Shown here: piece by piece, positions 2-29,977 of the stretch
Numbering within the stretch: position 1 is the first letter of the stretch
Layout: each line of letters begins with the position of its first letter
From: Lytechinus pictus
Lineage: Eukaryota
Assembly: GCF_037042905.1 (NCBI RefSeq)
Contig: NC_087245.1
Coordinates: 28,088,001-28,152,000, forward strand
Direction of reading: 5' to 3'
Length of the DNA: 64,000 nt
Translations under genes and position numbers: made by a program
The notes under the pieces: generated by a model
Seen by the model: only the letters and a program-made list of their open reading frames with translations
What the model was told of the DNA's origin: nothing
Database searches by the model: none

Positions 2-3000
2 AATGTAGTTCCTTTCATAGACTGGAACCATCTTGTTTTAGTAATTAAGCCTTCCGATCAACAAGATGTATTTTCACTAAGATTGGCATTGATTGATTCT
101 GATGGTCTCACCAAAACTTGGGAAATAACCATTACTGAAAATATCTTTGTCTCAAGCTTCTATATTGTCTTTGGTCAATGGCTGCCAGGTGAGGATACTT
201 ACATTCCATCCCCTGTATCTCGTCCATTCCGTGGTTCCATTGACGAGTTTTACATCTGGAAGAAGGAGCTTTTGGTAACAGAGGTTCTTGCAAGATTGGG
301 CAGTAGTGTACTTCCTGGCCCAGCAGACCTTGTGGCTCTCTGGAAGTTTGATGAAGGTCAAGGGAACACGGCAACAGATTTGGTTAACCAAAAACAGTTC
401 ATGATAAGGCAGTACTCATGGAATGTAAGAACGCCCATATGGCAGTTTTCATCAGCTCCTATCAGCTTGTACTCTCCAACATATATTTTGCATAATCCTT
501 CTGAGTGGTTTCAGTCCTGTGTGGAATTGTTTGCGACGATCAGTTCCACTTGTCATTCCGTCTCAGATCAGATAGATGTTTATCTAGTTGCATGTGCAAG
601 GGACTATGCTTTGTCCAATTCTGAGTATGCAAGACTTGGGGTACTCCTTTCGTATGCAGACGTATGCCATCTGAATTCAGAATCTACACTGAGTTGGCCT
701 GCACAGGATCTTTGCAATTCCTTTGATGTTTATTTTCCTCTTTGGTATGGACCATCTTGTGAATCAAAGTGTTACTTCTCATTAGACACTGATTCACCAA
801 TATCAAACTGCACATGTTCTCCGGGAACTTGGGGAATTGAATGTGATTCATCCTGTGTAGGAGGTGTGGGGTCACATTGCAATGGCCATGGCACATGTTC
901 TCCTGCTAGTGGATCTTGTCAATGTGAGTCTAACTGGATGGGCAGCAGTTGCGATGTGTGTAGTCAAGGATGGTTCGGAAGTGACTGTTCCCTAACCGCC
1001 AGTAGAACCCCTGACATACCTCTGTCAAGGTGCTCCATGTACATCAATGGACATATCACTATGTTTGATGGTTCTGTCTTTGAATTTTCAGATACCAGTG
1101 ATATGGTTTTCTTCTCTTCCTCAGATATTGAGATTCAAATAAGGCAGATTCCTTGCAACGGTTTGCCATCATGCATCACAGCAGTATCATTTGCCACTGG
1201 CACAAGTCACATGCTTTTATCTGCTCCTCATTTGCAACAATCGGATCCAGTCATCTTGCTGAACAATGTCACACTGCCATTGGAAACTGAGCTATTTGTG
1301 GGATCTACTGGTTTTTCTCTTATCAGGGTTGCGGTTGGTCACTTTGAAATAAATGGACCAAATAACTTTAAGTTCAAGATATTAAGTCCCGGAGCTTACT
1401 TCAATTTAGAGGTTTTACAAACAAATTGCATCTTCTCTTCTGGACTTTGTGGTCCCTGTCAAGTAATGGCCACATCATGTGGTGATTCTCAAGCTCTGTG
1501 TGCAATCAATAATCTCGGCTTTGTTGCTTATGCATCACTCTACCCATTAAGCTTTTCATTATCACAACAATACGGTGCCAGCTATGTGAGATATGGACCT
1601 TCAAGTTTAATATATACACAGCTGTTGGCAGCATCTCAAGCTACCTATATCCCAGTCTTTGGGAGCCCTTCAGGTTATGCCTTACAGTTCTATGAAGACG
1701 GAATCATGAGTGATCCACTACCAAGTTTTTTCTCTGCTGGACGAACCACCACACTTCAATGGTATTGCAAATTCACAGATATTCCTGGGGGTACCTTGTT
1801 TTCTGCTTCAGAGAGCAAATCATTAGCGGTAACAGTAGGAGATGATGGTAACTTCTGGATTCATGCAGGATTCGAGTCCCAAACAACAGGCATCATTGCT
1901 CCACAGAATGACTGGTTATTTATCATGGTATCATACTCCTCAGATGATGGACAGATTGTCTTCTATTGCGTCAAGTCATCTGGTGCAGTGTATAAAGCTT
2001 CTTTGAACTTTTCTTTCAGGGTACAGCTTATTAGCCCTGGAGTTGTCCTTGGTATTGGGTCTTGGGTATTACCATCCACTGGTTCAGTGCCTTTGCCAAG
2101 AATGCAATTTCATGGAATGATTGACAACCTCATAATAACAAAAGACAGCTTTGTGACTTTGAATGAAGTACTGGTAGCCTGGAAACAGCAATTTTCCCCA
2201 GGTGACCCTTCTGTTGTTCTTTATTTGACCTTTGATAAGGGTACTGGTGCTAAATTCTATGATGCTGCATCTAGTATTCCATGGAATATTCCACAGAGTT
2301 TACATAGGAAACCATCCTGGGTTGTTAGTGATCTGCCGATCGTTCCCCAACCTGGGAGGGAGATTTTCACCCTCCAAGTTAGCTTCTCAGATGAAACCTT
2401 AGAAAAGGATGCCCTTGCAATATGTAGGGAACAAATTTATGATGGTCCTGTTGATCAGGCATGTGGAAGCTTAAGCGAATCAGCGCAATACCACTACCAA
2501 GCATGCTTGAGCATAATTGCCTCTTCAGGAAGGCTTCGACTCTCTCTGGATGCTACTCTGGATTTTTCAAGTGGTTGTCAAGAAGTGTTACATCTCCCTT
2601 CTTCACCTGCTCAACAGCTGTGCAATGCATTCACTGATACATTTTCTTGGCCATATGCTGGAAGTACCTGCAGTGAGCGATGTGTCTTTGGATACTTCAC
2701 AGACCACTGCATATGTGACCGAGGCTACTACGGAGCTCAGTGTGATCAGACCTGCCCCGGAGGACCCAACAACCCCTGCAACGCTCATGGATCTTGCAAT
2801 CCTGTGACAGGCCACTGCATGTGTGAACCCAACTGGGAGAGTGGAACTGACTGTACAACATGCTCAGAAGGTTATGTTGGAGAAGATTGCTCAATAGGCA
2901 TAGTTCCCCAACCCCCTTCCACAACATCCATATCTGTTGTCTGGCCTGACACAATAACTACTTATGCAGGACTTCAGGTGCCATTGATGTCATTTGGTAT

Positions 3001-3049
3001 CTTCATCATATCTGATGCTACTGCTCCAGGATTTCGTTTCTACTGTCAT
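2..3049 (+). CDS. Giant VWD/LamG/C8/EGF repeat membrane protein, coding exon A (5'-truncated by the window edge)
   Basis: The frame of ORF 83..3064 is open back to base 2 (NVVPFIDWNHLVLVIKP..., a LamG-type WxHL motif), so the exon starts upstream of the window. It ends at donor CAT|gtaagt (3049/3050, phase 0). Encodes the end of a LamG-like domain (GSIDEFYIW, LVALWKFDEGQG), then C8-like, EGF cluster, VWD (GHITMFDG), LamG-like, C8-like, EGF cluster and the start of a VWD. Confidence 0.9.
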
Positions 3050-3512: not shown

Positions 3513-4456
3513 GTGAACCTTATTCCATCTCCTCAAGGATTTGTGATTCTTCTTATCACCTTCAGCCACAATGATGTGCGAATACGATTTCATCTCGATA
3601 GAAGAACACAGGAAGTGAATACAGTGGTAGGAGGTTTCCTCACACAGATTGATGATGTCATTACTAGAACCGATAGCCATGGCAATACTATCACCATCAA
3701 TCATCCGTCACCGGATCACTATGAGGTTGAGTGTGCGACTGGTTTGACACTGATGGTGATGGTCTCAGATGGCACACTTGGTGCAGAGATCAAGTTATCT
3801 CGAGGCGCTTGCTGTTTGGGTGGACCATCATGGGGAGGACTTGCTGGTTTTTGCCATTGCAGCCACAGAATTATAAAACCCACACATTTCTTCAATGAAA
3901 CCGACAGTAACTCAGACATCACAAAAAAAACCTTGGAATGGATGACAACAGATGATGTATCTTCAGGCAATGATTCATTTGAGTATGTGCTACCGGGGGG
4001 CTTTGCTGGATTTTCAATTAAGCTAAACAACTCATTAGTATATGTTGACTCAGTTGCAGCTTTCGTCAGCAATGCAATCACGATATCAATAAATGTGAAG
4101 TTCTGTGGCCCTGCTTGTGGAGGTGTCATCTTCGCATATGCTGGAGCATCCACCTTCCTCGTATCCGTTGAGACTTTTGTGACCCTCCATGTTGATGATA
4201 TCCTGTACTCAACTGATCTTCAACCTGCCATTGGGAACTGGACTCAAGTCAGTTTGCTCTATGATAGGTCAAACCTCGTTCTTCAAGTATACCTCCATGA
4301 CTTCTCAGGCTATGCAGCATGGCGAAGCATTCACCTTGATACAGATGTCTTTGAACCCCTTGGCAGTCTGGCTCTAGGAAACTGGTTTCCAGGTTCTTCA
4401 TACCCAAATCTAGGCATCTTTCATGGAGATATTGATGAGTTTACCGTTTGGGACAG
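3513..4456 (+). CDS. Same gene, exon B (rest of a VWD domain and most of a LamG-like domain)
   Basis: Pyrimidine-rich acceptor ttctttttctag|GTG, phase 0, matching exon A. Donor TGGGACAG|gtat, phase 2. Contains WTQVSL and FHGDIDEFTVWDR LamG/pentraxin-like motifs. Confidence 0.88.
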
Positions 4457-4498
4457 GTATTCTATTTTTTTTTTAATGTGTAATGTTCAAAGGAAGGT

Positions 4499-4830
4499 TT
4501 AACCTTAAAAAGTCTGGGCTACATGTATTTCGCTACCTAAGAAGACGGGGGGCTGATTCAGCCCCCCCCCCCCTTATAAATCTCGGCCATCGATCACATG
4601 ATCGCAACAAAAATTGGTACTCGCGCTACCCATGGCATAATCTACAAAACAGTAAGATAAAATTCTGCAAAAAATCTCATTGCCTATTAATTATGCTAAT
4701 TTATGCGCAAAATAAAAGTTTGCTCTAATTAACTAAATAATGCCCCTTTAAAAATGCTAAGTTCTGGTTCACAGACTTTATAGGGTTCTGATCAAATGTA
4801 CTTGAAAAAAATTCAATATCCCATTTATGT
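4499..4830. mobile_element. Possible end fragment of a piggyBac-type non-autonomous element
   Basis: Begins TTAA-CCTTAAAAAG, then a ggggggctgattcagcccccc palindrome. The other end was not found. Confidence 0.3.
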
Positions 4831-4831
4831 T

Positions 4832-5541
4832 TCTAGTTCATAAAAATTGGACATAAGGGTAATAGAGTATCAATGAGCATCTTGCCTGAGTTTTGGGTCA
4901 CTTGACCAAGGTCAAAGGTCATTTAGGGTCAACGAACTATGGTCATGTTGGGGGTAATTGTTGCATTGTCATCATAACTTTGAAAGTTTATAGATCTAAT
5001 TCATAAAACCTGGTCATAAGAGCAGTCAAGTATCACTAAACACATTGTGCAAGTTTCAGATCTTACGACCAAGGTCAAAGGTCATATAGGGTAAACAAAC
5101 TTTGGCCATGTTGGGAATATTTGTTGAATTGCTATCATAACCTTGAAAATTTATTGATGTAGTTCATAAAACTTAGACATAAAAGTAAGCAAGTATCATT
5201 GAACATCCTTGGTGAATTGTCAAATAACCAATGTCAAAGGTCAATGAAATTTGGCATGTTGGGGTTATTGTAGAATTGACATCATAACTTTGAATGTTAA
5301 TGTAGCTAGTTCATGAAACAAGGACGAAAGGATAATCAGATATCACTTATTGTTTTGCATGAGTCTTTTGTCACATGATCAAGGTCTAAGGTCATTTAGG
5401 GTAAATGAATAGAGTGTTTTATTATCTTCATGAATGGTGTTTTTGCTTAAATAATTATTCAATATTCATTTTCATATTCAGCACAGCTGCTATATTGAAT
5501 CGCATAATGCAGGCGAGACTGCCAGATGCGTTCCACTTGTT
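4832..5541 (+). repeat. About 4 copies of a ~160-bp tandem unit within an interspersed repeat (possibly Helitron/Helentron-related)
   Basis: ttcataaaa...catAAG anchors at about 4837, 5000, 5163 and 5310. AGGTCAAAGGTCA at 4909 and 5072 (period 163), with degenerate copies near 5231 and 5382. Ends ...ccacttgtt. Confidence 0.7.
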
Positions 5542-5590
5542 TTCAATATATATCTGTAGATATATATGTTTAAAGGAATTTGAGGGTATA

Positions 5591-5960
5591 TTTTTATGCC
5601 TCCGCCCTTCATAGGTGTCCATCCCGTTTCCATTCTCACATTTTTAAAGAAAGTTTGAGATATCAACTTCAAGTATGTTCATCCATTCTGATTGAAAAAT
5701 AACTGAATAGTTTTGTGGGTCATTAAAAGTAAAAAGTCCAATGTCATATATACTCGTAAATTTATTGTTCACATGACAACTTACAACCCTGGTCAAATAT
5801 GGTTTTGTAAGTGAGGATGATCTGATTAGATTTTTGGGTCACATTGTCAGAAGACACCAAGGTAGGAATTTGACAATTAAAGAAGTAATATGTAGTACAT
5901 TCTTCTTGTAATGACAGAGGCATAAATTCTTACTGCATATTATTGAGAATCCAATTGATT
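5591..5960 (+). mobile_element. DINE-1/HINE-like (Helentron-derived) non-autonomous element, degraded
   Basis: Starts TTTTTATGCCTCCGCC. Its subterminal inverted copy GAGGCATAA is at 5917-5925, about 35 bp from the T-rich end. Confidence 0.45.
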
Positions 5961-6108
5961 GAACTATGTGCATCAGCTTACAGAGCTATTCTGCAGAGCA
6001 GTATATTAAGTTATATTGCTAGCTTGTTTACAAATAAATCAATGAATGAATATTTTACCAATACTAAAATCCTTTGTTTATTGTCCTCATGCTTTATTTT
6101 ATGCCTAG

Positions 6109-6206
6109 GTTTTTAGATGAAGCTGAACTTCGAGCCCTTCTGAGAGCAAGTCCTCTGTCTTGCACCCCAAACTTGGTAGCTCAATGGAGATTTGATTCTT
6201 TGAATG
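6109..6206 (+). CDS. Same gene, exon C (98 nt; FLDEAEL...LVAQWRFDSLN)
   Basis: Acceptor atgcctag|G completes the split Arg codon. Donor AATG|gtatgt, phase 1. LVAQWRFD aligns with LVALWKFD and LTAFWPLD in the other repeats. Confidence 0.85.
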
Positions 6207-6252
6207 GTATGTGGAATTTCAAACTACTGACCATGAAATTTCTGTCTTATAT

Positions 6253-6545
6253 GGGGGCATTGTGGCACATTGGATTAGTCTTAGGTCTTGGGTTCAAATC
6301 CCAGCCATGGTGTACTTTGTAATACCTATGGTGTAACTTGTAGCGCCCTGCAATTGCATTGTGCTGCAATCAACCCAGGTGAGGTGTTCCTTGCAGTATT
6401 TAATTCCTTGAGATTCTTGTGCGCTTTAAAACGCCGCTAGGCTATTGTCAGGGTAATAATATTTATGTCCTCTGAAGCACATAAAGATGTTATATCATAT
6501 TGTGATGTGTTGTACAAGAACTATATGCATTGTTATTGTTTTGTT
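6253..6545 (+). mobile_element. Degraded tRNA-derived SINE
   Basis: Head GGGGGCATTGTGG, B-box GGTTCAAATCC at 6291-6301, body CAACCCAGGTGAGGTG, and a (TTG/TTA)-rich tail. Confidence 0.6.
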
Positions 6546-6726: not shown

Positions 6727-6997
6727 GCGACATGATATTGGACTCGGTGTCTGATGTACCAATGCACCTGTCATCCCCTGGCTACCAATCTCCTGAACTT
6801 GTGACCTCTGACCTGGAATTGGATGTCCCAGGATCAGGCATACCTCCAGGAGAAGATTCTGCGTTAAACCTGCAAGGGACAGTAGTCACTGATGGCAATG
6901 GATTTGATGTCATTGATCCATGTGGGCAGGAAACCTCCGTAGGATCTTGGATTGAGGTTTTCTGCTCTGATATCATCTATTCAGGACCTCTTGGACA
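6727..6997 (+). CDS. Same gene, exon D (end of LamG-like domain, linker, start of C8-like domain)
   Basis: Acceptor tttcctctag|GC completes a Gly codon (phase 1). Donor GGACA|gtaag, phase 2. FCSDIIYSGPL aligns with ICREQIYDGPV and ICEMMFFEGPL. Confidence 0.85.
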
Positions 6998-7233: not shown

Positions 7234-8907
7234 GGAGTGCCAGCTTGGTCAGTCTGCCTCATTGGATGTCTATGTAGAATGCGTGAAGGCTCTTGAGAAT
7301 ACAAACAGCACTGAAGCAGCCCTACCAATCATCATCAGATATGCAGACTTCTGTCAGGCTACACTGTTATTATCTTTCTGGCCAGCTCAGACACTCTGCA
7401 ACAGGTTTGGAGATGCTCCATTCCCATTGTGGATCGGGGATGACTGCGACATCCAGTGTGTCTATGGTAACAAGGATCTCAATGACCGTAACATCTGCCT
7501 CTGTGATGCAGGCCACTGGAATGTATCCTGTGATAAGGTTTGTCCTGGTGGATCCAACAATCCATGCAATGGTATAGGTGTGTGCAACAGGCTGACAGGA
7601 CATTGTGACTGTCCAGTGAACTGGCAAGGAGCTCCAGATTGTTCTGTCTGTACTCCAGGATGGACTGGGGCTGGATGTGCTCTGTCTAAGATGCCCATCG
7701 GTCTTGGAGAGAGGATATCATCCATTGGCCTTTCTTTCATCACAACATATAATGGATTTACTTTCCAGTTTACCCACATTGGAGAGTATCAGCTTTTGGT
7801 AATAGGGCATCATCAATTTGGTCTTCAAGCCAAATTTGTTAATTGCTTTACACAAAAATCGTGCATGCAACACCTGGGCTTTTACTTTGGTGACAATGTC
7901 AATGGTTATGGGTCTGTAACAATAAGTGCTGGGGAGCATCCTAAAGACTTCATGTCTGTTAGATTAAATGGAAGATCATATGATCTGCATACCAATGTGA
8001 CCTTTGGGAATGCTGGGTACGTCTTTAGGAGACTATCCTTGACTGAAATCTTGTGCACTGGTCCAGATGGATTGAGGTTAACTGTGAGGTCATCTGGTTT
8101 GTACATCACACTTCAAACAGAATTACCTGAAATCCTGTGTGCTGTATCTCAGGGTCTTCTAGCAGGTGGTTGCTGTAACTCAAGCTCCAACTCCACATCA
8201 CCCTTTACCATCCCTATGCAACCTCTGAAATGTCCTGGCATCAGTGGTTTGGAAATAAACCCAGCACCTCTTAATGATTCTGACTATACCTATATCACTG
8301 ATGATTCCATACCTGCATGTCAAGATGGACAGGGAACAAGGTCATCCAATTTCAATGACCTCCTACATGCCTGGTTAATCAACAACTGTGAGTCTGTCAT
8401 CAGTTACCGTTCTTTGCTGATACAGCATCAACAGCAAATCGATTTCAATCTTCAGCTCAACCCTTCTGTCCTCTTCGTCAAGGAACTTATTTCCATTGCC
8501 CCTGTCAAATATGATGTCACTTTTGAGCTGTTTGTGAAACTTCTTGACCCTTATGGTGTAATCTTGTCGTTCTCACACTCCTCGACATTTTCCTTGTATG
8601 TCAATGGCACTCTTCATATCAACCTTGGGGGTATTGTTTACACAACTTCACTGAGGCTACAACTTCAAGCATGGTATAAGATTGTGGTAGTGTTCACTGC
8701 TTCAAGCAACAACCATGTCAACATCTATCTTGTGACTTCTACTCAAGATGTTTTCAGAGAAACGATTGATCTTCTTCATCACCCTGATTTCTTCAAGCAG
8801 GCTGGATACCTTGCACTTGGTTCTTGGCTTCCAAGCTCCAATGATGTAGGTGTTTCTTCTCTACCAGGTCTAAGGGGACATATTGATGATCTACGGATAT
8901 GGAATAG
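7234..8907 (+). CDS. Same gene, exon E (C8-like, EGF cluster, VWD, most of LamG-like)
   Basis: Acceptor tttttcctttcag|G completes a Gln codon. Donor TGGAATAG|gtatgt, phase 2. Motifs YADFC...WPAQTLC, CPGGSNNPCNGIGVC, FITTYNG and GHIDDLRIWNR. Confidence 0.9.
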
Positions 8908-9434
8908 GTATGTTATTATGTACATGGCTTTATAGAATTGATTATCTGTAAACAAACCTTACAGAGTTTGACCTGATGAATAAAACAGTTTTGATAAATC
9001 ACATTCATAGGACATTACTCACACAGTTCCGTTGCCTGTTTCTTAAAAAGTAAAAATCACATGAAATTTTTATTTCCATGTGGTATACATGTAAATCATG
9101 CTTCATAATACTTAATCAAATACAATGTTAAACCCTTTGTTTTCTCTCTTTTTGTTGATATCCACTTGCGGACAGACTTTTCCCTCTGAAACTATGTTGT
9201 AAACCATTTAACATGTGATCGATAGACACAATTGCATACCAAATTGTATGTATTTGACTTGTAATATAGAATAATAAAATAATTGTAATACATGATAGAA
9301 TGACACATGGTGTTCCGAAATATGTCACTGAGCATTGACTTTATACAGAGTATTAGTAACTTGTGTAAAGGCTACATGTAGCTTCATAAACTTTAGTAAT
9401 TCTCATTGCTCCTTTTATTTCTTTCCATTTGTAG

Positions 9435-12400
9435 AGCTTTCACCCCTGGAGATGTGGCTACACTTTGGACTACCATAATTCCAGATGATGCTGAGTTCCT
9501 GACAGCATTCTGGCCTTTAGATGAAGGACAGGGAGATGTTGCTGTGGACATTGTTCAAGGCATTTGTTTTCATATGCCAGATGAACCATGGTCACCATCT
9601 GTGTGGGTCACTTCGGATATCATCAATCCCAGCCAATCTGTTCCATTACCAGATAGTCATTTGAATGCCAGTATTAATGTTTGTTCAAGACTTTTCTTTA
9701 CTGATCCCTTGCATGGTGCATGCCAACCATTCCTTGGCCCAACCACAGCCTCGTACCATGATCTCTGTCTTCAAGCCGCCGATGATGCTGGAGAAGGAGG
9801 AGCATATAATGTTGCATTTGCATATGCTGATATCTGCCAAACGATTTTGAACCTGACCAGTTGGCCTGCCCAGCCACTCTGTAAAGAAGTTCCACACCTC
9901 AGAGCTGGTAGCCAATGCAAGGGTGATTGTGTTAATGGAGTAGAAGTCTCAGATGTTTGCTATTGCCATGAGGGTTTCTTTGGAAACCATTGTGAATTAG
10001 TTTGCCCCGGTGGCTTTGTAAAACCTTGTAGTAATCATGGAGTGTGTGATCCTCAAGGACAGTGCAGATGTGAACAAAACTGGCAAGGTTCTGTAGATTG
10101 TAGTACGTGTTCTGGCAATTGGGAAGGCATAGATTGTACACTAGTACATACATCTGTCCTGGTTGCTTCACAAGGTGGTCATCGAATCAATTACAATGCT
10201 TTGATAAGTGTCCATACCCAATATATAACATTTGATGGTCTGACTTTCTACTTTGGAGCAGTTGGAGAATTCTACCTTGTAAGAACTCAGAGTTTCCGGC
10301 TGCAAATACGCCAAGTCCCATGCTTCACTGAAGGTACATGTGTTGCAGCATTTGCAGTCTTCTCAGATGAAGAGCAGATTGTGTTCCATGCTCCTTACAA
10401 TAGTGGAGACGTGCCAATTCTCTGGCTTAACCATAGAATTATTCACATAAGCCAAATTGAGACTATGATAACCCAGCATTGGTTGCTACATGAGTTGCAA
10501 CAAGGAAAATACAAACTAACATTCCTAGAAGAAGGCTACTCTGTTGATATCCAAGTCATTAGAAGACATCTCCAACTAAGTATTTCATTACCACAACAAA
10601 CCTGTCAAGATTCTGAAGGATTACTTGGGAACTGTAACGGTGATGTCAGTGATGATTTTCGTGGACCTTTGAATTCCACCACTCAACAGGACATTAATGG
10701 AGAGATAGCCGACAGTTGGCGTGTACCAATCAATGAAAGCTACTTTGTACACTCCTATGGCCCATACATTGAAATGCCTATACCATCGGGAGCTATCTAC
10801 AGCCTTCGAGTTGACCACACTGGTGCTGTTACAACTCCAACAAATTTCACCATTAGAAATGCCACCTTGATTGAATCAATAACAATCAATTTCAGGATCA
10901 AGGTTCTCGCTGATGAAGGAGTTATAATTTCATTGAACTTTGGAAGAACAGTTACAATGTACCTTGTGGGTTCACATCTAAGAATATATGACAGCTTGCT
11001 CCACTATGATACAGCTATCGTACTTGCTGAGAATTTATGGATCCAAATCTATTTTGTTATCACAGCGAATGGTACCATTCGGTTATATGCCTTTACAGAT
11101 ACGGGTATCAGCAATTCATACACAACAAATATTGCATCCTTCCCTTCATTCATGGATGATTTCTACATATCCATTGGTCAGCACATCATACAGCCAACCG
11201 AGAATAATATTCTGTTGCTTTCTTCATTTGTGGGGGATATTGATGACTTGCGTTTGTGGTCCAGACAATTTCACCCAGCTCTCATTGACCAAGGAAGAAC
11301 GGTGAACTTATTTGCCAATGTTGACCAAGAATTCCTTATTGGACTGTACCGATTTGATTTCAGTTCTTCTAGTCACATGGATGATGTTCAAAGAATCAAT
11401 CTACTGAGTCCTCATGATCCCTGGCCAAGTCCTTGGACCATACCTTCTGACGCCAATGTTGACATCTCGATAGCGGATCCATTCGCAAGGACATTCAACA
11501 ATAAAAGTCTTGCCGCTGACGCAGTGGATATATGTTCTTTCCTTGACCCTAATAGCAATGTCAGTACATGGGATCTGTGTTCAAACTCGACAGAAGCCTT
11601 CCAAGGCTTTTTCCATTTATCATGCCTAAGGACAGTTTCAACCTCAAGATCTACAGATGCTGCATTTGCACTGATGTCCTCTGTGTTAGATTATTGCGCA
11701 ACTTTAAATGGAGAAAATGTCAGCTATGATGGATTATGTTTCATGTTAAGAAACAAAAGACTGCCCAACTGGTTGTTAGACCTGTGTGATGCATCATGTA
11801 TATATGGAACACCTGATGCTGATGGAAAGTGTTCTTGTCACAGTGGCTTTTGGGGAGTCAGCTGTTCCTTTGATTGCCCAGGTGGTCACTCTCATCCCTG
11901 CAATGACAATGGACAGTGTCTACGTGAAGGAATATGTGAGTGTTTACCTAATTGGTCTGGTGATGAATGCAATCAATGCAACCATGGATGGTCTGGTGAG
12001 GATTGCTCTCTAGGAATTGCTCGTATTGGAAATAGTCTGGAAGTCAACACACAGAATGCATATTTCAGCATGCATGGCAGGATTGTAACCTTTGATGGAG
12101 CTTCCATCTTTCTTCGTAAAGGCTACACATACAACATCCTCTCTGGTATCCATTTGGATCATCAGTTCAAATTGAAATTGAGGCTGTCAGATTGTGTGAA
12201 TGCTCATGGCTTCACATTATGCTATGATGCCATTTCTGTCAGCTATCACTTCCACACAATTACCATGAATGTCAACACCAATTTTCGTTTCGGAGTCGAT
12301 GTCTGGATCAATCATCACCTGATTGCATTAGACCATATTACACAAATCACTGAGAACTTCATCATCACAAGACTTAATATCATTCAGTATGAGATCAGCC

Positions 12401-15400
12401 TATCATCAACAATTCGAATCATTGTGACTGTTCATGAGAAAGAGCTAGAGATACAAGTCATTGCACCAACAGAATACTGCATGATTGAAGGATTATCGGG
12501 ACTTCTTTCTTCCTGCAACACCCCTGGTGAACTTTCAGATACATCATGTACTCTTTCTAGGAATGGCAGTACATCAAGCAACCAAAGTAGTAGTAACTGC
12601 TCTTTTAACGGCACACAGAGCAGCATTGATAACTATACATCTAGATTCATTGCACAAGAGATATACAATTCCGAATATGAGTCTCACCTAAACCTGCTAC
12701 CAACTCAGGGTGCTGGCTACTTCCTCTTCTTCAAGGACAGTATTGTTGTTTCTGCAGAGATGTGGAATTTCCCAACAGAGCTTTTTACTCTTGAAATGTA
12801 TGTTCTACCGCTAAGTGTTGATGGGGTTCTCCTGTCATATGGGACCAGTCAAGGGATATTTGCTTTACTTCTGTCCAACACCAGTCTCCAGGTATCTTAT
12901 GGAACCGCCTTGTATGACCTTGACCTTTATGTTGAGCTAGACGTGTGGCAGCAGATCACTCTTGTTTGGCATCAAAGTACCTTAATCCTGGAAATATATC
13001 TCTTCGATCTACAAGGTTCGATTAGAGTTAATGCTATACAGTTCCAATCAGCCATTTTCCATCTTGGAGGACATCTTGCATTAGGGCAATGGTATGCCCA
13101 TGTACCGTTTGATGCTCCAGCTCTACCAGCAGTTCCATTTGAAGGTGGCTTGGATGAAATCAGATTATGGACAAGGAGGACCAATCCATCTGTAGTTAGA
13201 TCAAGCTGGAAGTTCAATGCTGATGTGAATACACCAGACCTTACAAACCTGTGGAAGATGAATTCTGGAGTTGGGGATACTATTGTAGATGTAATTGGAG
13301 ACTACAACCTTAAGCCTGTGGATACCCATCTTGCATCATGGCAGATATCAGAGGATATCTACACCAGTAGAAATATTTTACCCTTTATCTTCCCTGTCTT
13401 CCGCACAGCCAATCTATCAGACCTGGCTCATACGCTTTGTCATCAAATATTTCTGCAAGGTCAGTTGTTTGAAAATTGTCAAGAACTTGATGACATTTTC
13501 TTCTCAAAATATCATACACAATGCTTATATGACATTTCTTTCCAATCTGATGTCAATGCTGCTATCCAGGCCACAATTGCCTTTGCAGATATATGTTTCC
13601 ATGAACTGACCTTGACAAGTTGGCCAGCACAATACCTTTGTAATACCTTCCAAGATAGAGATTTCCCATACTGGATTGGAAGCGAGTGCGACATCCCATG
13701 CTTGTTTGGAAAAAGGAATGATACAAACAGTGATATCTGCGAATGTGAAGTTGGCTACTGGAAAGATGACTGCAGTAGTCCCTGTCCTGGTGGTATCATC
13801 AACCCGTGCTCAGGACATGGATTGTGTGATAAACAGACAGGTCATTGCTCCTGTGATATTCACTGGTTGGGAAAAGTCAGCGACATGGAATATTATCCAT
13901 GCAATGAATGCTCTGAGGGGTGGATTGGCACTGATTGTTCTACAACCACTATTTACCACAACTTGACTGATACCAGAAATGAAGCAGTTGCCATCTTTTC
14001 GAGTGGTGCACATGTCACAATGTTCGATGGAGCAAGCTTACAGTTTGATATCCCTGGATTATTCAGTCTACTTTCTACAGCACGTTGCAGGATCAGCATA
14101 TTTGTGAAACCATGTAATGGTAGGACAGCCTGCCGTGAACTTGCAGAAGTATACATCTCCAGTGGGGAACAGCAGTTGTCTGTAAGAACTCATGGCAGTT
14201 CACTCCTTGTGACACTGTACTTTCAAGAAGTATGGACAGAAATGAGTGTTGGATCACAGCAGACCATGAGATTCGGGATTGGAGTTGACTTCAAGGAAAG
14301 TGGATTCATTTCTATCACTGTGATTGATGGCCTCACCATTGACGTAACACTATACGCAAATATGATGTCAGTGGTCTTATACATTCCTGAGAACATTGAG
14401 ACAGGACCTGATTCTCTTCTAGGATCCTGGGATTTTAACTGGCTCAATGATATCAATGTGGGCTATCCCTCTGCCGGAAATGATCTCGATTGGCTTCCTA
14501 TCAATTCCACATATTTTCAGGAATCAGTCTATTCTCAGGAATACATCAACAGCTTCATTGCCAAGTTCTACAGGATCGCTGTTGATGAGGTGAATTTCCA
14601 GCATCCCATGGCAGCAGCATTCACGAGTGGCAGTTTCATGCTACGCTTCCAAAATGGAATGTTAACTTTCATCGATCTTCCTTTGCTGGTTCTCAATCAG
14701 TTCAGTCTTCAGTTTTGGATCCGTGTTCATGACACAACCAGAGCGCATCAAACAGTACTCACATGGCACTCAAGGAGTCTGGTTGTTCATCTGGAAAAAA
14801 CAAACATAGTTGTAACTATTAACAATCGTGTCATCCGTACTACTCTATCTCTTTCAAGTGATGTCTGGTTCCACCTGGTAGTAACATGGAGAAACTATGA
14901 TGGAAGATTGATTTTGTATTTGTACAACTCCAATATTGATCTAACTTCTACTTTCCTTGTGTTTGGTGTCTCAACTGCACAACATCTTGAACTGCCTCAA
15001 ACTTTATCGATTGGACAATCCTCTAACGACCAAGGCACTTCACTTGGTGGAGACATTGATCAAATCATCCTTCAAAACAAACATATCAATGATGCCATTG
15101 CCAAGAAAATGAGGGATATCTACACAGATGAACTTTCAGAGGACATAGTGTTGGCAATTCCTCTTCAGGAAGGGATCGGTAATGAAACCATATCGAGAGG
15201 TCAGAATGGTTCTCAATTTGTTGGGCGTCTTGAAGGATTAACTGTACCACAATGGATGCCATCAGATGCACCCTTTTCTATATTACCTGACTATGCACCA
15301 GACTTCATACCTGAGGAATTTGAAAAAGAGTCATTCCAAATCTGTGAGATGATGTTCTTTGAGGGTCCACTCTACAGCAATTGCCGTGACCTTGAAAGCA

Positions 15401-15951
15401 CACATCATTTCTACTACGAGTCCTGTCTCGAAGACATTGCAGCAACGGGTAATCTCAAAGCTGGCAACATATCGGCAAATATGTTTGCTATTCTCTGTAA
15501 AGAAGCTTTGAACATCCCAGAGGTTCAGCTGTGTGGGTTTTACAATTACTGTCGTTACGAATCTTCAAGCCTTCTATGGTGGTGGTGGATACTACTGCTC
15601 ATTCTGCTCATTCTGCTCATCCTTATCACCATTGGTGTTTGTTTCTACCGGAAGTTTCAAAAAAATCATCCTGGAGGTCGATCAGATGGTACAGTGATGA
15701 GTGCCAAAGAGACGGACACGGATCAAGGCCCATGTCAAGGTGTATCCAGTTCATCAGGTTTTGTGTTTGGTGAACAAGCCAATGATGATTCCAGAAACAT
15801 CAAGGACCTTCTAGTAAAAAATTCAGAAGCTAAGTATGATATAGAGATGAGTGCCATAAAGACCGACAAAGATGGAGATTTTGTCTTTGCTGGACCATCT
15901 TATGCTGATAGTCAACACACTGATGAATCTGAAGATGATTTCCTTCATTAA
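9435..15951 (+). CDS. Same gene, terminal coding exon F (6.5 kb): three further super-modules, transmembrane helix, cytoplasmic tail, stop
   Basis: Acceptor ttccatttgtag|A completes an Arg codon, and the frame is open to TAA at 15949-15951. CPGG EGF clusters at about 10003, 11875 and 13783. VWD TFDG/MFDG motifs at about 10230, 12090 and 14020. Hydrophobic LLWWWWILLLILLILLILITIGVCFY at about 15571-15648, followed by RKFQK. Confidence 0.93.
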
Positions 15952-28830: not shown

Positions 28831-28970
28831 TAAGTTATTTTCAATCCTCACAACAAATTATTTGAATTTATTTCTTTGTATATTGTTTCACTCTTTTCAT
28901 TTCCATTGTTCCTCCTCCTTAATTTTCGATTTACAGACATTAAAGACTGGTCTTCTGGTGGCTTTTTGGT

Positions 28971-29684
28971 ATGGCAAACACTTTAGGAATCCGTGTTGTT
29001 CGACCGGTAACACTCCGAAAGTTTCATCAACCTGAGCTCGACCTTTCAGAGGAACGTGACACCGATCCTCTTTTATCGGCCAACAGAGTGCGCACTTCTC
29101 ATCAACGAATGGCAGGGGATTGTCAGCCAAGCAAATCGTGGAATGCACATTCAAATCCACAATCTCAGTCAAGCACTGTCGACCGTAGTACGCAAACACA
29201 CTGCACGGACGATATTCTACACACAGATTTTCTTATTCGGGGCACGGCTGCAGACGACAGAGTAGACATGCCAGTATCGTCTACACTCACACACTATTCC
29301 ATGCACAAAAATAGCCAGGATTTCTCGAATTTCGAGCCGAACTGCCCAAACTCGATGGACTATCACTCTCATGGTGGAACTTTAACCCATTCGTCTCCGT
29401 TTAACGGGATTAAACAAGCAGGATATGACACTTATGGTAGCGAGTTAGAGTATCGAGTTGGAGCGCCGATTCTCGGGGGAGATACTGGTAACGGTGGAGT
29501 TGGTAGCGGCTTTGGTGGCGGACCATTGCTGAAACAAGGTGGATCTTTGGTAGACGAGTTTGGACCCAAAGAGGCGCCACATAAACTTGGAAGTAGCAAG
29601 GATAGCTATACTAAAATGACGAGAGCGGTGACACAGAAACCCGAAGGAATCGGGGAATCATTAGCCTGGCTCAAACGAGAACTG
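28971..29684 (+). CDS. First coding exon (238 codons) of a FAM167/AARD-like (DUF3259-type) coiled-coil protein; 3' exon(s) not found in window
   Basis: Acceptor ttacag|A at 28936/28937, in-frame TAA at 28941-28943, then ggtATGG in good Kozak context. Donor CTG|gtgagt at 29684/29685, phase 0. The exon ends GIGESLAWLKREL, which resembles my recollection of the FAM167 motif IDEAxxWLRxEL. The remainder is low-complexity Ser/Gly/His-rich sequence. Confidence 0.7.
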
Positions 29685-29977
29685 GTGAGTACAGATCCCC
29701 CGATAGATCTTGATTTCACATGTATTTTATAATTTTGTTGAGGTTGATAAAAAAGTGTGTACGGTTGATTCATAATGGCATTAGTGTTTTTTCTTTCTTT
29801 GATTGGCGGTGTTATGTTTTTGCTTTTCATCTTAACAATCGAATTACATTAAAACAGACGTAGATCTATTGTGATATTTTTAATATAACTTAAGCGTAGA
29901 AGATTTTTATATGAATGAAATCAAAATATTCATAAAAGTTGAAAGAAAAATTATTTGAAGGTCGATCTGCATTTATT

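Follow-up and report, generated by a model that had tools for sequence, protein, structure and literature searches.

Repeats resembling D assemblies, with a LamG domain between VWD and a C8-like module, in a predicted giant membrane protein of Lytechinus pictus

We analysed 64,000 nucleotides of the Lytechinus pictus genome (contig NC_087245.1, positions 28,088,001 to 28,152,000 of the forward strand; hereafter the window) and found that the segment 10183-12015 on the plus strand encodes repeat 7 of nine in a 6,375-residue type I membrane protein. The best explanation, to which we assign a probability of about 0.72, is a giant surface protein of modified D-assembly repeats in which a LamG domain is inserted and a C8-like module is still docked. 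Such a protein would begin with an EGF stalk, followed by nine VWD-LamG-C8like-(EGF) repeats, a single transmembrane helix and a tail in the cytoplasm. In every repeat the D assembly would be modified: a LamG3/pentraxin-like sandwich whose termini lie next to each other would sit in the VWD-to-C8 linker, the C8-like module would have lost some cysteines and still pack canonically on its own VWD, and EGF units would stand in for TIL-E in connecting one repeat to the following one. The array would be an ordered rod of fixed count; the protein would project far from the cell, and several LamG heads could bind glycans, matrix or a partner cell. We regard the structural reading of the repeats as probable; a role as a long tether at the cell surface or an adhesion receptor, in which LamG would give multivalent binding to glycans or matrix, we infer tentatively. 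At the level of sequence comparison, the domain order, the C8 homology, the nine position-specific repeats and the membrane anchor could be shown.

Results

The locus is animal genomic DNA with introns and not a single open reading frame (ORF). Spliced at their AG/GT ends, six exons give a continuous reading frame of 4,183 amino acids that is open at the 5' end. This gene model is identical to residues 2193-6375 of P0219, a database protein of 6,375 aa, hence the existing gene model uses the same splice sites; as P0219 has nine repeats, 10183-12015 is the seventh. The exons and the features that follow repeat 7 are:

2..3049, plus strand: exon, 5' end open; end of repeat 3, repeat 4 and start of repeat 5 (first part of the gene model matching P0219)
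3513..4456, plus strand: exon; covers, in repeat 5, the remaining VWD and the bulk of LamG (AG/GT ends, one open frame)
6109..6206, plus strand: short exon inside LamG of repeat 5
6727..6997, plus strand: exon; completes LamG of repeat 5 and opens its helical module
7234..8907, plus strand: exon; remainder of repeat 5, then the VWD of repeat 6 with the bulk of its LamG
9435..15951, plus strand: last exon (6.5 kb); end of repeat 6, repeats 7-9, transmembrane helix, tail and stop (low sense-strand RNA reads)
12037..13947, plus strand: repeat 8 (VWD-LamG-helical-EGF); its helical module has WPAQYLC and one of the two best Pfam C8 scores
13972..15564, plus strand: repeat 9 (VWD-LamG-helical, without EGF), directly before the membrane
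15571..15648, plus strand: predicted transmembrane helix (hydropathy scan)
15649..15951, plus strand: acidic cytoplasmic tail of about 100 aa, without a C-terminal PDZ-type motif

According to sub-profiles, the window protein reads L-H-e, five V-L-H-e units and a final V-L-H, followed by the membrane helix and tail (V, VWD; L, LamG; H, helical Cys module; e, EGF). In three RNA runs chosen by species label (about 6% of reads), first-mate depth over the last exon was low on the minus strand (0-1.1) and zero on the plus strand, which fits sense transcription under the usual library convention; intron repeats filled the joints listed, and no splice-junction read was among these.

Several further observations concern the locus. 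The introns at 4456/4457 and 8907/8908 lie at the same LamG site in repeats 5 and 6, after a conserved W.R that follows G.ID, which hints at duplication of an intron-bearing unit or at parallel gain. Intronic high-copy repeats at 4400-6400 draw very deep coverage from elsewhere in the genome. At 15576, where the membrane helix begins with a run of Trp, a contig of RNA run X1 carries a six-base in-frame insertion that is probably an allele. A 262-codon open frame at 28944-29732 on the plus strand, without a Pfam match, is probably an exon of a neighbouring gene.

Repeat 7 itself comprises the following parts:

10192..10782, plus strand: VWD with post-VWD helix and linker; Ca-site-like D/N set kept, GDPH absent (Pfam PF00094; model residues 4-200)
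10789..11457, plus strand: inserted LamG3/pentraxin-like beta-sandwich of about 223 aa, first and last strands adjacent (fold matches, couplings)
11503..11787, plus strand: reduced C8-like helical module; Cys at module positions 451, 466, 481, 505, 519 and 535 (model helices, C8 profile match, couplings)
11788..12015, plus strand: EGF/laminin-EGF-like units replacing TIL-E (Pfam EGF_Teneurin, EGF_2)

Its motifs start at 10228 (TFDG), 10618 (GLLG), 11038 (WIQI) and 11233 (GDIDDL), and the helical Cys run extends from about 11533 to 11787. The original prediction had placed a beta-rich domain of about 220 aa between the VWD and a helical Cys module; this order holds in all six VWD domains of the window, and the insert of repeat 7 (module residues ~203-425 of the predicted model) proved to be LamG3/pentraxin-like. 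In the family the VWD exits to LamG in 261 of 268 transitions, a count biased toward that order, as the set was retrieved with a profile of the same module. Pfam found VWD, LamG3 and teneurin-type EGF in the last-exon ORF, the VWD (PF00094) scoring above cut-off at residues 271-421 of ORF 9406-15951 (whole-ORF E 5.9e-22). The proposed replacement of TIL/E by EGF-like units agrees with the EGF families and the absence of TIL in these Pfam results, and the expectation of about five C8 cysteines agrees with the exactly five Cys in the helical core of 189 of 226 family modules.

Repeat 7 is divergent, and two motif claims fared less well. Its helical module ends in VSYDGLC where WPAQ.LC had been expected; WPAQ..C occurs in 4/7 window helical modules, and W stands at that position in 92 of 226 family modules. 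The LIGLYRFD stretch is present as described but is a degenerate form of the family motif W.F.EG.G, and the LamG of repeat 7 lacks EG.G. Four D/N positions, picked from what we take to be the VWF calcium site, are all kept in repeat 7, in none of the other five full window repeats and in 28/226 modules. Two observations concern VWD cysteines. The strongest coupling in the family (module positions 6/148) reflects an optional VWD Cys-Cys pair present in 54/226 repeats, mostly repeats 2-4. The VWD of repeat 9 (13972-14463) has three Cys, one of which may be unpaired.

The inserted domain was recognized mainly through its fold. PF13385 scored 42.3 bits for the whole last-exon ORF, and the LamG of repeat 7 alone matched weakly (14.8 bits, E 0.031). 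With the whole repeat as query, the ESM Atlas yielded leads to LamG3 only (0.80-0.81), and phmmer of the repeat against PDB sequences returned only EGF-type and chance matches. In structural comparison of model residues 200-428, the nearest folds were the PAPP-A LamG (Z 18.8), a putative carbohydrate-binding protein of Bacteroides and pentraxins (Limulus pentraxin, Z 17.6), with Z 16-19 and rmsd of about 3 A overall. Furthermore, the couplings 208-419 and 210-417 join the first and last LamG strands, as an inserted domain needs.

Subsequent in the chain is the helical module, which is, on the evidence of profile comparison, a reduced C8 homologue below the definition of C8 by eight conserved Cys (given in the portion of PMC4948705 consulted). 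Pfam C8 (PF08742) matched three of the seven window modules with E of 0.002, 0.0024 and 0.042, all below cut-off (23.7 bits, against a top score of 18.8), and gave no match for the helical module of repeat 7. In the ESM Atlas the top matches of the repeat 8 module were C8 clusters (score 0.94, 180 shared features), with a recognition value of 1985, below the threshold of 2300. A profile of the seven window modules retrieved no C8-containing chain from PDB sequences. A further link came through hybrid relatives, P0079 (Owenia) and the JGI proteins P0086, P0087 and P0092, which hold one or two LamG-inserted repeats among other VWD units, these neighbours being either ordinary VWD-C8 units or VWDs in which no C8 was detected. 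Three hybrids have a Pfam-positive C8. When hhalign compared the profile of 214 family modules with a profile of 21 helical modules from three hybrid relatives, each coming after a VWD with no LamG between and seeded from Pfam-positive C8 stretches, the probability was 86.9% and E 4e-6 (reversed control 2.5%). The C8 similarity that the original prediction called for is thus found in hhalign, in the Atlas clusters and, below threshold, in Pfam. Four Cys are aligned, and two Cys between the third and fourth are absent from the family module. In addition, direct couplings over 226 repeats rank 466-505 fifth, 451-481 eighteenth and 519-535 seventy-ninth, which implies a three-disulfide pattern. 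The hybrid proteins are possible intermediates in the origin of the module.

Docking of the C8-like module, a fixed LamG position and an ordered repeat-to-repeat geometry are predicted from structural models. AlphaFold2 modelled one 611-aa repeat (52 sequences) with pLDDT 91.2 and pTM 0.90, the module helices lying at 441-454, 471-488 and 492-508, and two repeats (43 sequences) with pLDDT 87.8 and pTM 0.82. Mucin and VWF D assemblies ranked first in structural alignment of the one-repeat model (MUC5B 8oer_B, 267 residues, 2.8 A, Z 25.8; MUC5AC 9gvj_B, 287 residues, 3.6 A, Z 25.3). In the two-repeat model, repeat 7 aligned with MUC2 D3 over 244 residues at 2.8 A (model 2-563), though the next VWD was available, and with VWF D'D3 over 251 residues at 3.4 A. 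Alignments by VWD only (FCGBP D10 and vitellogenin rows) cover 160-169 residues, thus the 244-287 residues aligned here include the helical part in the D-assembly superposition. Because the aligner also reports about 520 residues at 16-25 A for two repeats, aligned length alone is no proof, and docking was read from aligned length together with rmsd in low-rmsd rows only. With this joint superposition at 2.8-3.6 A in both models, the C8-like module is predicted to pack against the outer side of its own VWD sheet in the canonical position with LamG looped out of the chain, as had been proposed.

Every listed D-assembly entry has a release date in or after 2019, later than April 2018, which we take to be the training cut-off of the AlphaFold2 weights used here, and two models built on alignments that differ, though they overlap, both show the docking. 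Both points speak against the view that the helical module is C8-derived and placed non-canonically, as in FCGBP D10 or mainly on LamG, so that the models would reflect AlphaFold2 bias. FCGBP D10 (8qci), in which the C8 is perched on top of the sandwich (PMC10880436, in the part consulted), served as an internal control and gave a VWD-only alignment (163 residues, model 12-205). According to the same part of PMC10880436, AlphaFold2 put the C8 of D10 in the canonical position in four of five models and so differed from the crystal, which means that it may lean toward canonical packing and favours the non-canonical view. FCGBP D10 has a cleaved GDPH, however, which is absent from every window repeat (and DPH from all of P0219). 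Inter-domain covariation leaves room for non-canonical placement, as the top MI z-scores of 5.8 (V-L), 6.3 (V-H) and 5.6 (L-H) have no clear excess over shuffle maxima of 4.4-5.9 and the top pairs involve near-invariant columns; so does the loss of the two cysteines that hybrid C8s have after the third aligned Cys. His13 and Asp484 occur together in 55/226 modules against about 31 expected, an excess that is no more than suggestive of canonical contact, since kinship can also give it. One VWD-LamG coupling, 80-289 (rank 9), was dropped owing to V/I/L exchange in both columns. We consider non-canonical placement unlikely.

A permuted unit, helical-EGF-VWD-LamG, in which the helical module docks on the next VWD, is suggested by distance along the chain, about 75 EGF residues separating the module from the next VWD and about 240 residues separating it from its own. 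Nevertheless, arrays start with a VWD, and their last element ahead of the membrane is a helical module, with neither EGF nor VWD between the last helical module and the membrane in any of 31 membrane-anchored members, and the first VWD and first helical module jointly superpose on MUC2 D3 in the two-repeat model. We therefore regard permutation as very improbable and retain canonical docking on the module's own VWD.

The original prediction pictured loose beads on a string. A freely hinged LamG or repeat pair would be expected to give a pTM of about 0.55-0.65 (our estimate from the TM-score formula). The pTM values of 0.90 for one repeat and 0.82 for two exceed this and thus suggest a confident placement of LamG and of the neighbouring repeat, in a compact ordered rod rather than on a loose string. 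A disulfide-linked polymer former of the mucin or VWF type would fit the closest structures, which are all mucin, VWF or FCGBP D assemblies. Against it stand the membrane anchor, the lack of a PTS region in residues 2-4059 of the window part and a two-repeat geometry unlike tandem mucin or VWF assemblies (rmsd 16-25 A). Moreover, the 22 Cys of repeat 7, an even number, are all placeable in intradomain pairs, and since no Cys is spare, covalent polymerisation of the mucin type is unlikely; overall, we hold a polymer former to be the most improbable reading.

A profile search of 1.84 billion representatives returned 202 proteins at E up to 1e-30, many lower matches being EGF- or LamG-only, and 226 repeats were cut from the matches listed, minus 15 near-duplicate cluster members. 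Members include Ptychodera flava XP_070533132.1 (hemichordate), Nucella lapillus KAL8620494.1 (snail) and Owenia fusiformis CAH1775849.1 (annelid); a search for near-length homologues found none among 5,725 candidates. All five members with both an EGF stalk and a membrane helix, one being the gene's own record, have nine VWD and nine LamG. In a quick tree of 44 repeats with long branches, each of window repeats 4-9 falls together with the Ptychodera repeat of the same number, as do several repeats of Nucella, and 102 of 129 adjacent repeat pairs keep a +1 register against the Ptychodera protein. By these sequence criteria the family appears old and position-conserved, its repeat number and order predating the split of molluscs and hemichordates.

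The ends of the relatives vary. Tails ending in S/T-x-hydrophobic (class I PDZ-type) occur in 8 of 31 members, against a background of 2.8%, in sequences that are related and non-independent. GDPH is found only in the last, membrane-proximal VWD of eight relatives (P0025, P0055, P0080, P0215-P0218 and P0220), five of which also end in a PDZ-type motif; one of four GDPH matches in the 226 modules lay inside an EGF unit and was not counted. In the longest relative, P0199 (7,665 aa), the first VWD is preceded within residues 1-2060 by a Gly-rich N-terminal part, an EGF-like stalk of about 1,900 aa and a small domain poor in Cys; the true N-terminus of this protein may lie further upstream.

Discussion

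The family shares with the canonical D assembly of VWF, MUC2/MUC5AC/MUC5B and FCGBP the VWD fold, a C8-like helical module, the predicted VWD-C8 packing and the tandem repeats. It differs in the LamG of about 223 aa between VWD and C8 in 6/6 window repeats, in a five-Cys instead of an eight-Cys C8 core, in EGF instead of TIL-E, in the type I membrane anchor and in another repeat-to-repeat geometry. Hence the family resembles the D assembly but falls outside it in VWD-C8 adjacency, Cys number and TIL-E. Unlike gel-forming mucins and VWF, the window part (residues 2193-6375) has a membrane helix, no VWA or CK match and no gap the size of a PTS region, the domains covering residues 2-4059 with no gap above about 80 aa.

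Several other proteins combine some of these domains. The precomputed match PF26129, which we take to be the VWDE helical domain, is present in 10/10 long family members, in a database listing that gives no position. VWDE likewise has a VWD with teneurin-like EGFs, being a proposed extracellular-matrix glycoprotein of VWD and EGF repeats (PMC7390686 and PMC9117669, in the parts consulted); the nine VWD-LamG repeats and the membrane helix distinguish our family from it. MUC4 and SUSD2 are, similarly, type I membrane proteins with a VWD near the membrane. MUC4 is cleaved at GDPH, and the GDPH of the eight relatives lies in the corresponding last VWD. SUSD2 is also cleaved at GDPH (PMC10880436, in the part consulted). 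In contrast, the window gene has no GDPH and has nine repeats with LamG, and NIDO, AMOP and Sushi had no Pfam match in the four large window exons or the scanned relatives. The LamG of PAPP-A, the pentraxins CRP, SAP and PTX3 and the PTX-like domain of ADGRG4 share the fold of the inserted domain (Z 16-19, about 175-200 residues), which differs from these LamG3/pentraxin-like domains in being embedded inside another module and has 12-16% identity with them.

What the LamG domains do bears on the biological reading. With the structure as predicted, LamG could also be a structural spacer or a strut between repeats, and the protein could serve as a link or ruler by virtue of its length and stiffness. 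Conservation in LamG is highest at Gly, Trp and motif residues of the kind usual in the core of this fold, the pTM values imply a fixed geometry and the repeat number is nine in all five near-complete members, all of which suit a strut. On the other hand, the closest folds include ligand-binding domains (pentraxins, the PAPP-A LamG and the putative Bacteroides carbohydrate-binding protein), and the position-specific divergence of the repeats fits distinct partners. A purely structural role is nearly as likely as LamG binding, and both remain tentative assignments; we slightly favour the tether or adhesion receptor with LamG-mediated binding.

USH2A and ADGRV1 are giant hair-bundle link proteins with LamG/pentraxin-like domains and C-terminal PDZ-binding motifs, and their repeats are FN3 or Calx-beta, not VWD. 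By analogy, the family shares with them a very long single-chain surface protein and, in the 8/31 members mentioned, the PDZ-type tails; the window gene differs in having no PDZ-type ending. A speculative and rather doubtful extension is that rigid nine-repeat filaments, made of D assemblies interrupted by LamG, serve invertebrates as mechanical links of fixed length that join cilia, microvilli or cells, like USH2A/ADGRV1 in vertebrate hair bundles, with intracellular anchoring by a PDZ-binding tail, with membrane-proximal GDPH cleavage in one subgroup and with the hybrid proteins recording the origin of the module.

A repeat protein of VWD-LamG-C8 type was undescribed in the titles and abstract openings of the literature searched, mostly in non-subscription journals, and within two of the three files that supplement PMC4948705, the only place with laminin/pentaxin terms is Fig S5, the FCGBP_N collection. 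D assemblies are usually seen as an uninterrupted VWD-C8-TIL-E block. Our results suggest that the linker of the VWD-C8 core can accommodate a whole domain, and that this core can carry repeated LamG heads as a scaffold with neither TIL nor polymerisation through disulfides. They also bring to notice a large conserved surface protein of invertebrates whose separate domains are already annotated in domain databases and which was itself previously annotated only as uncharacterised.
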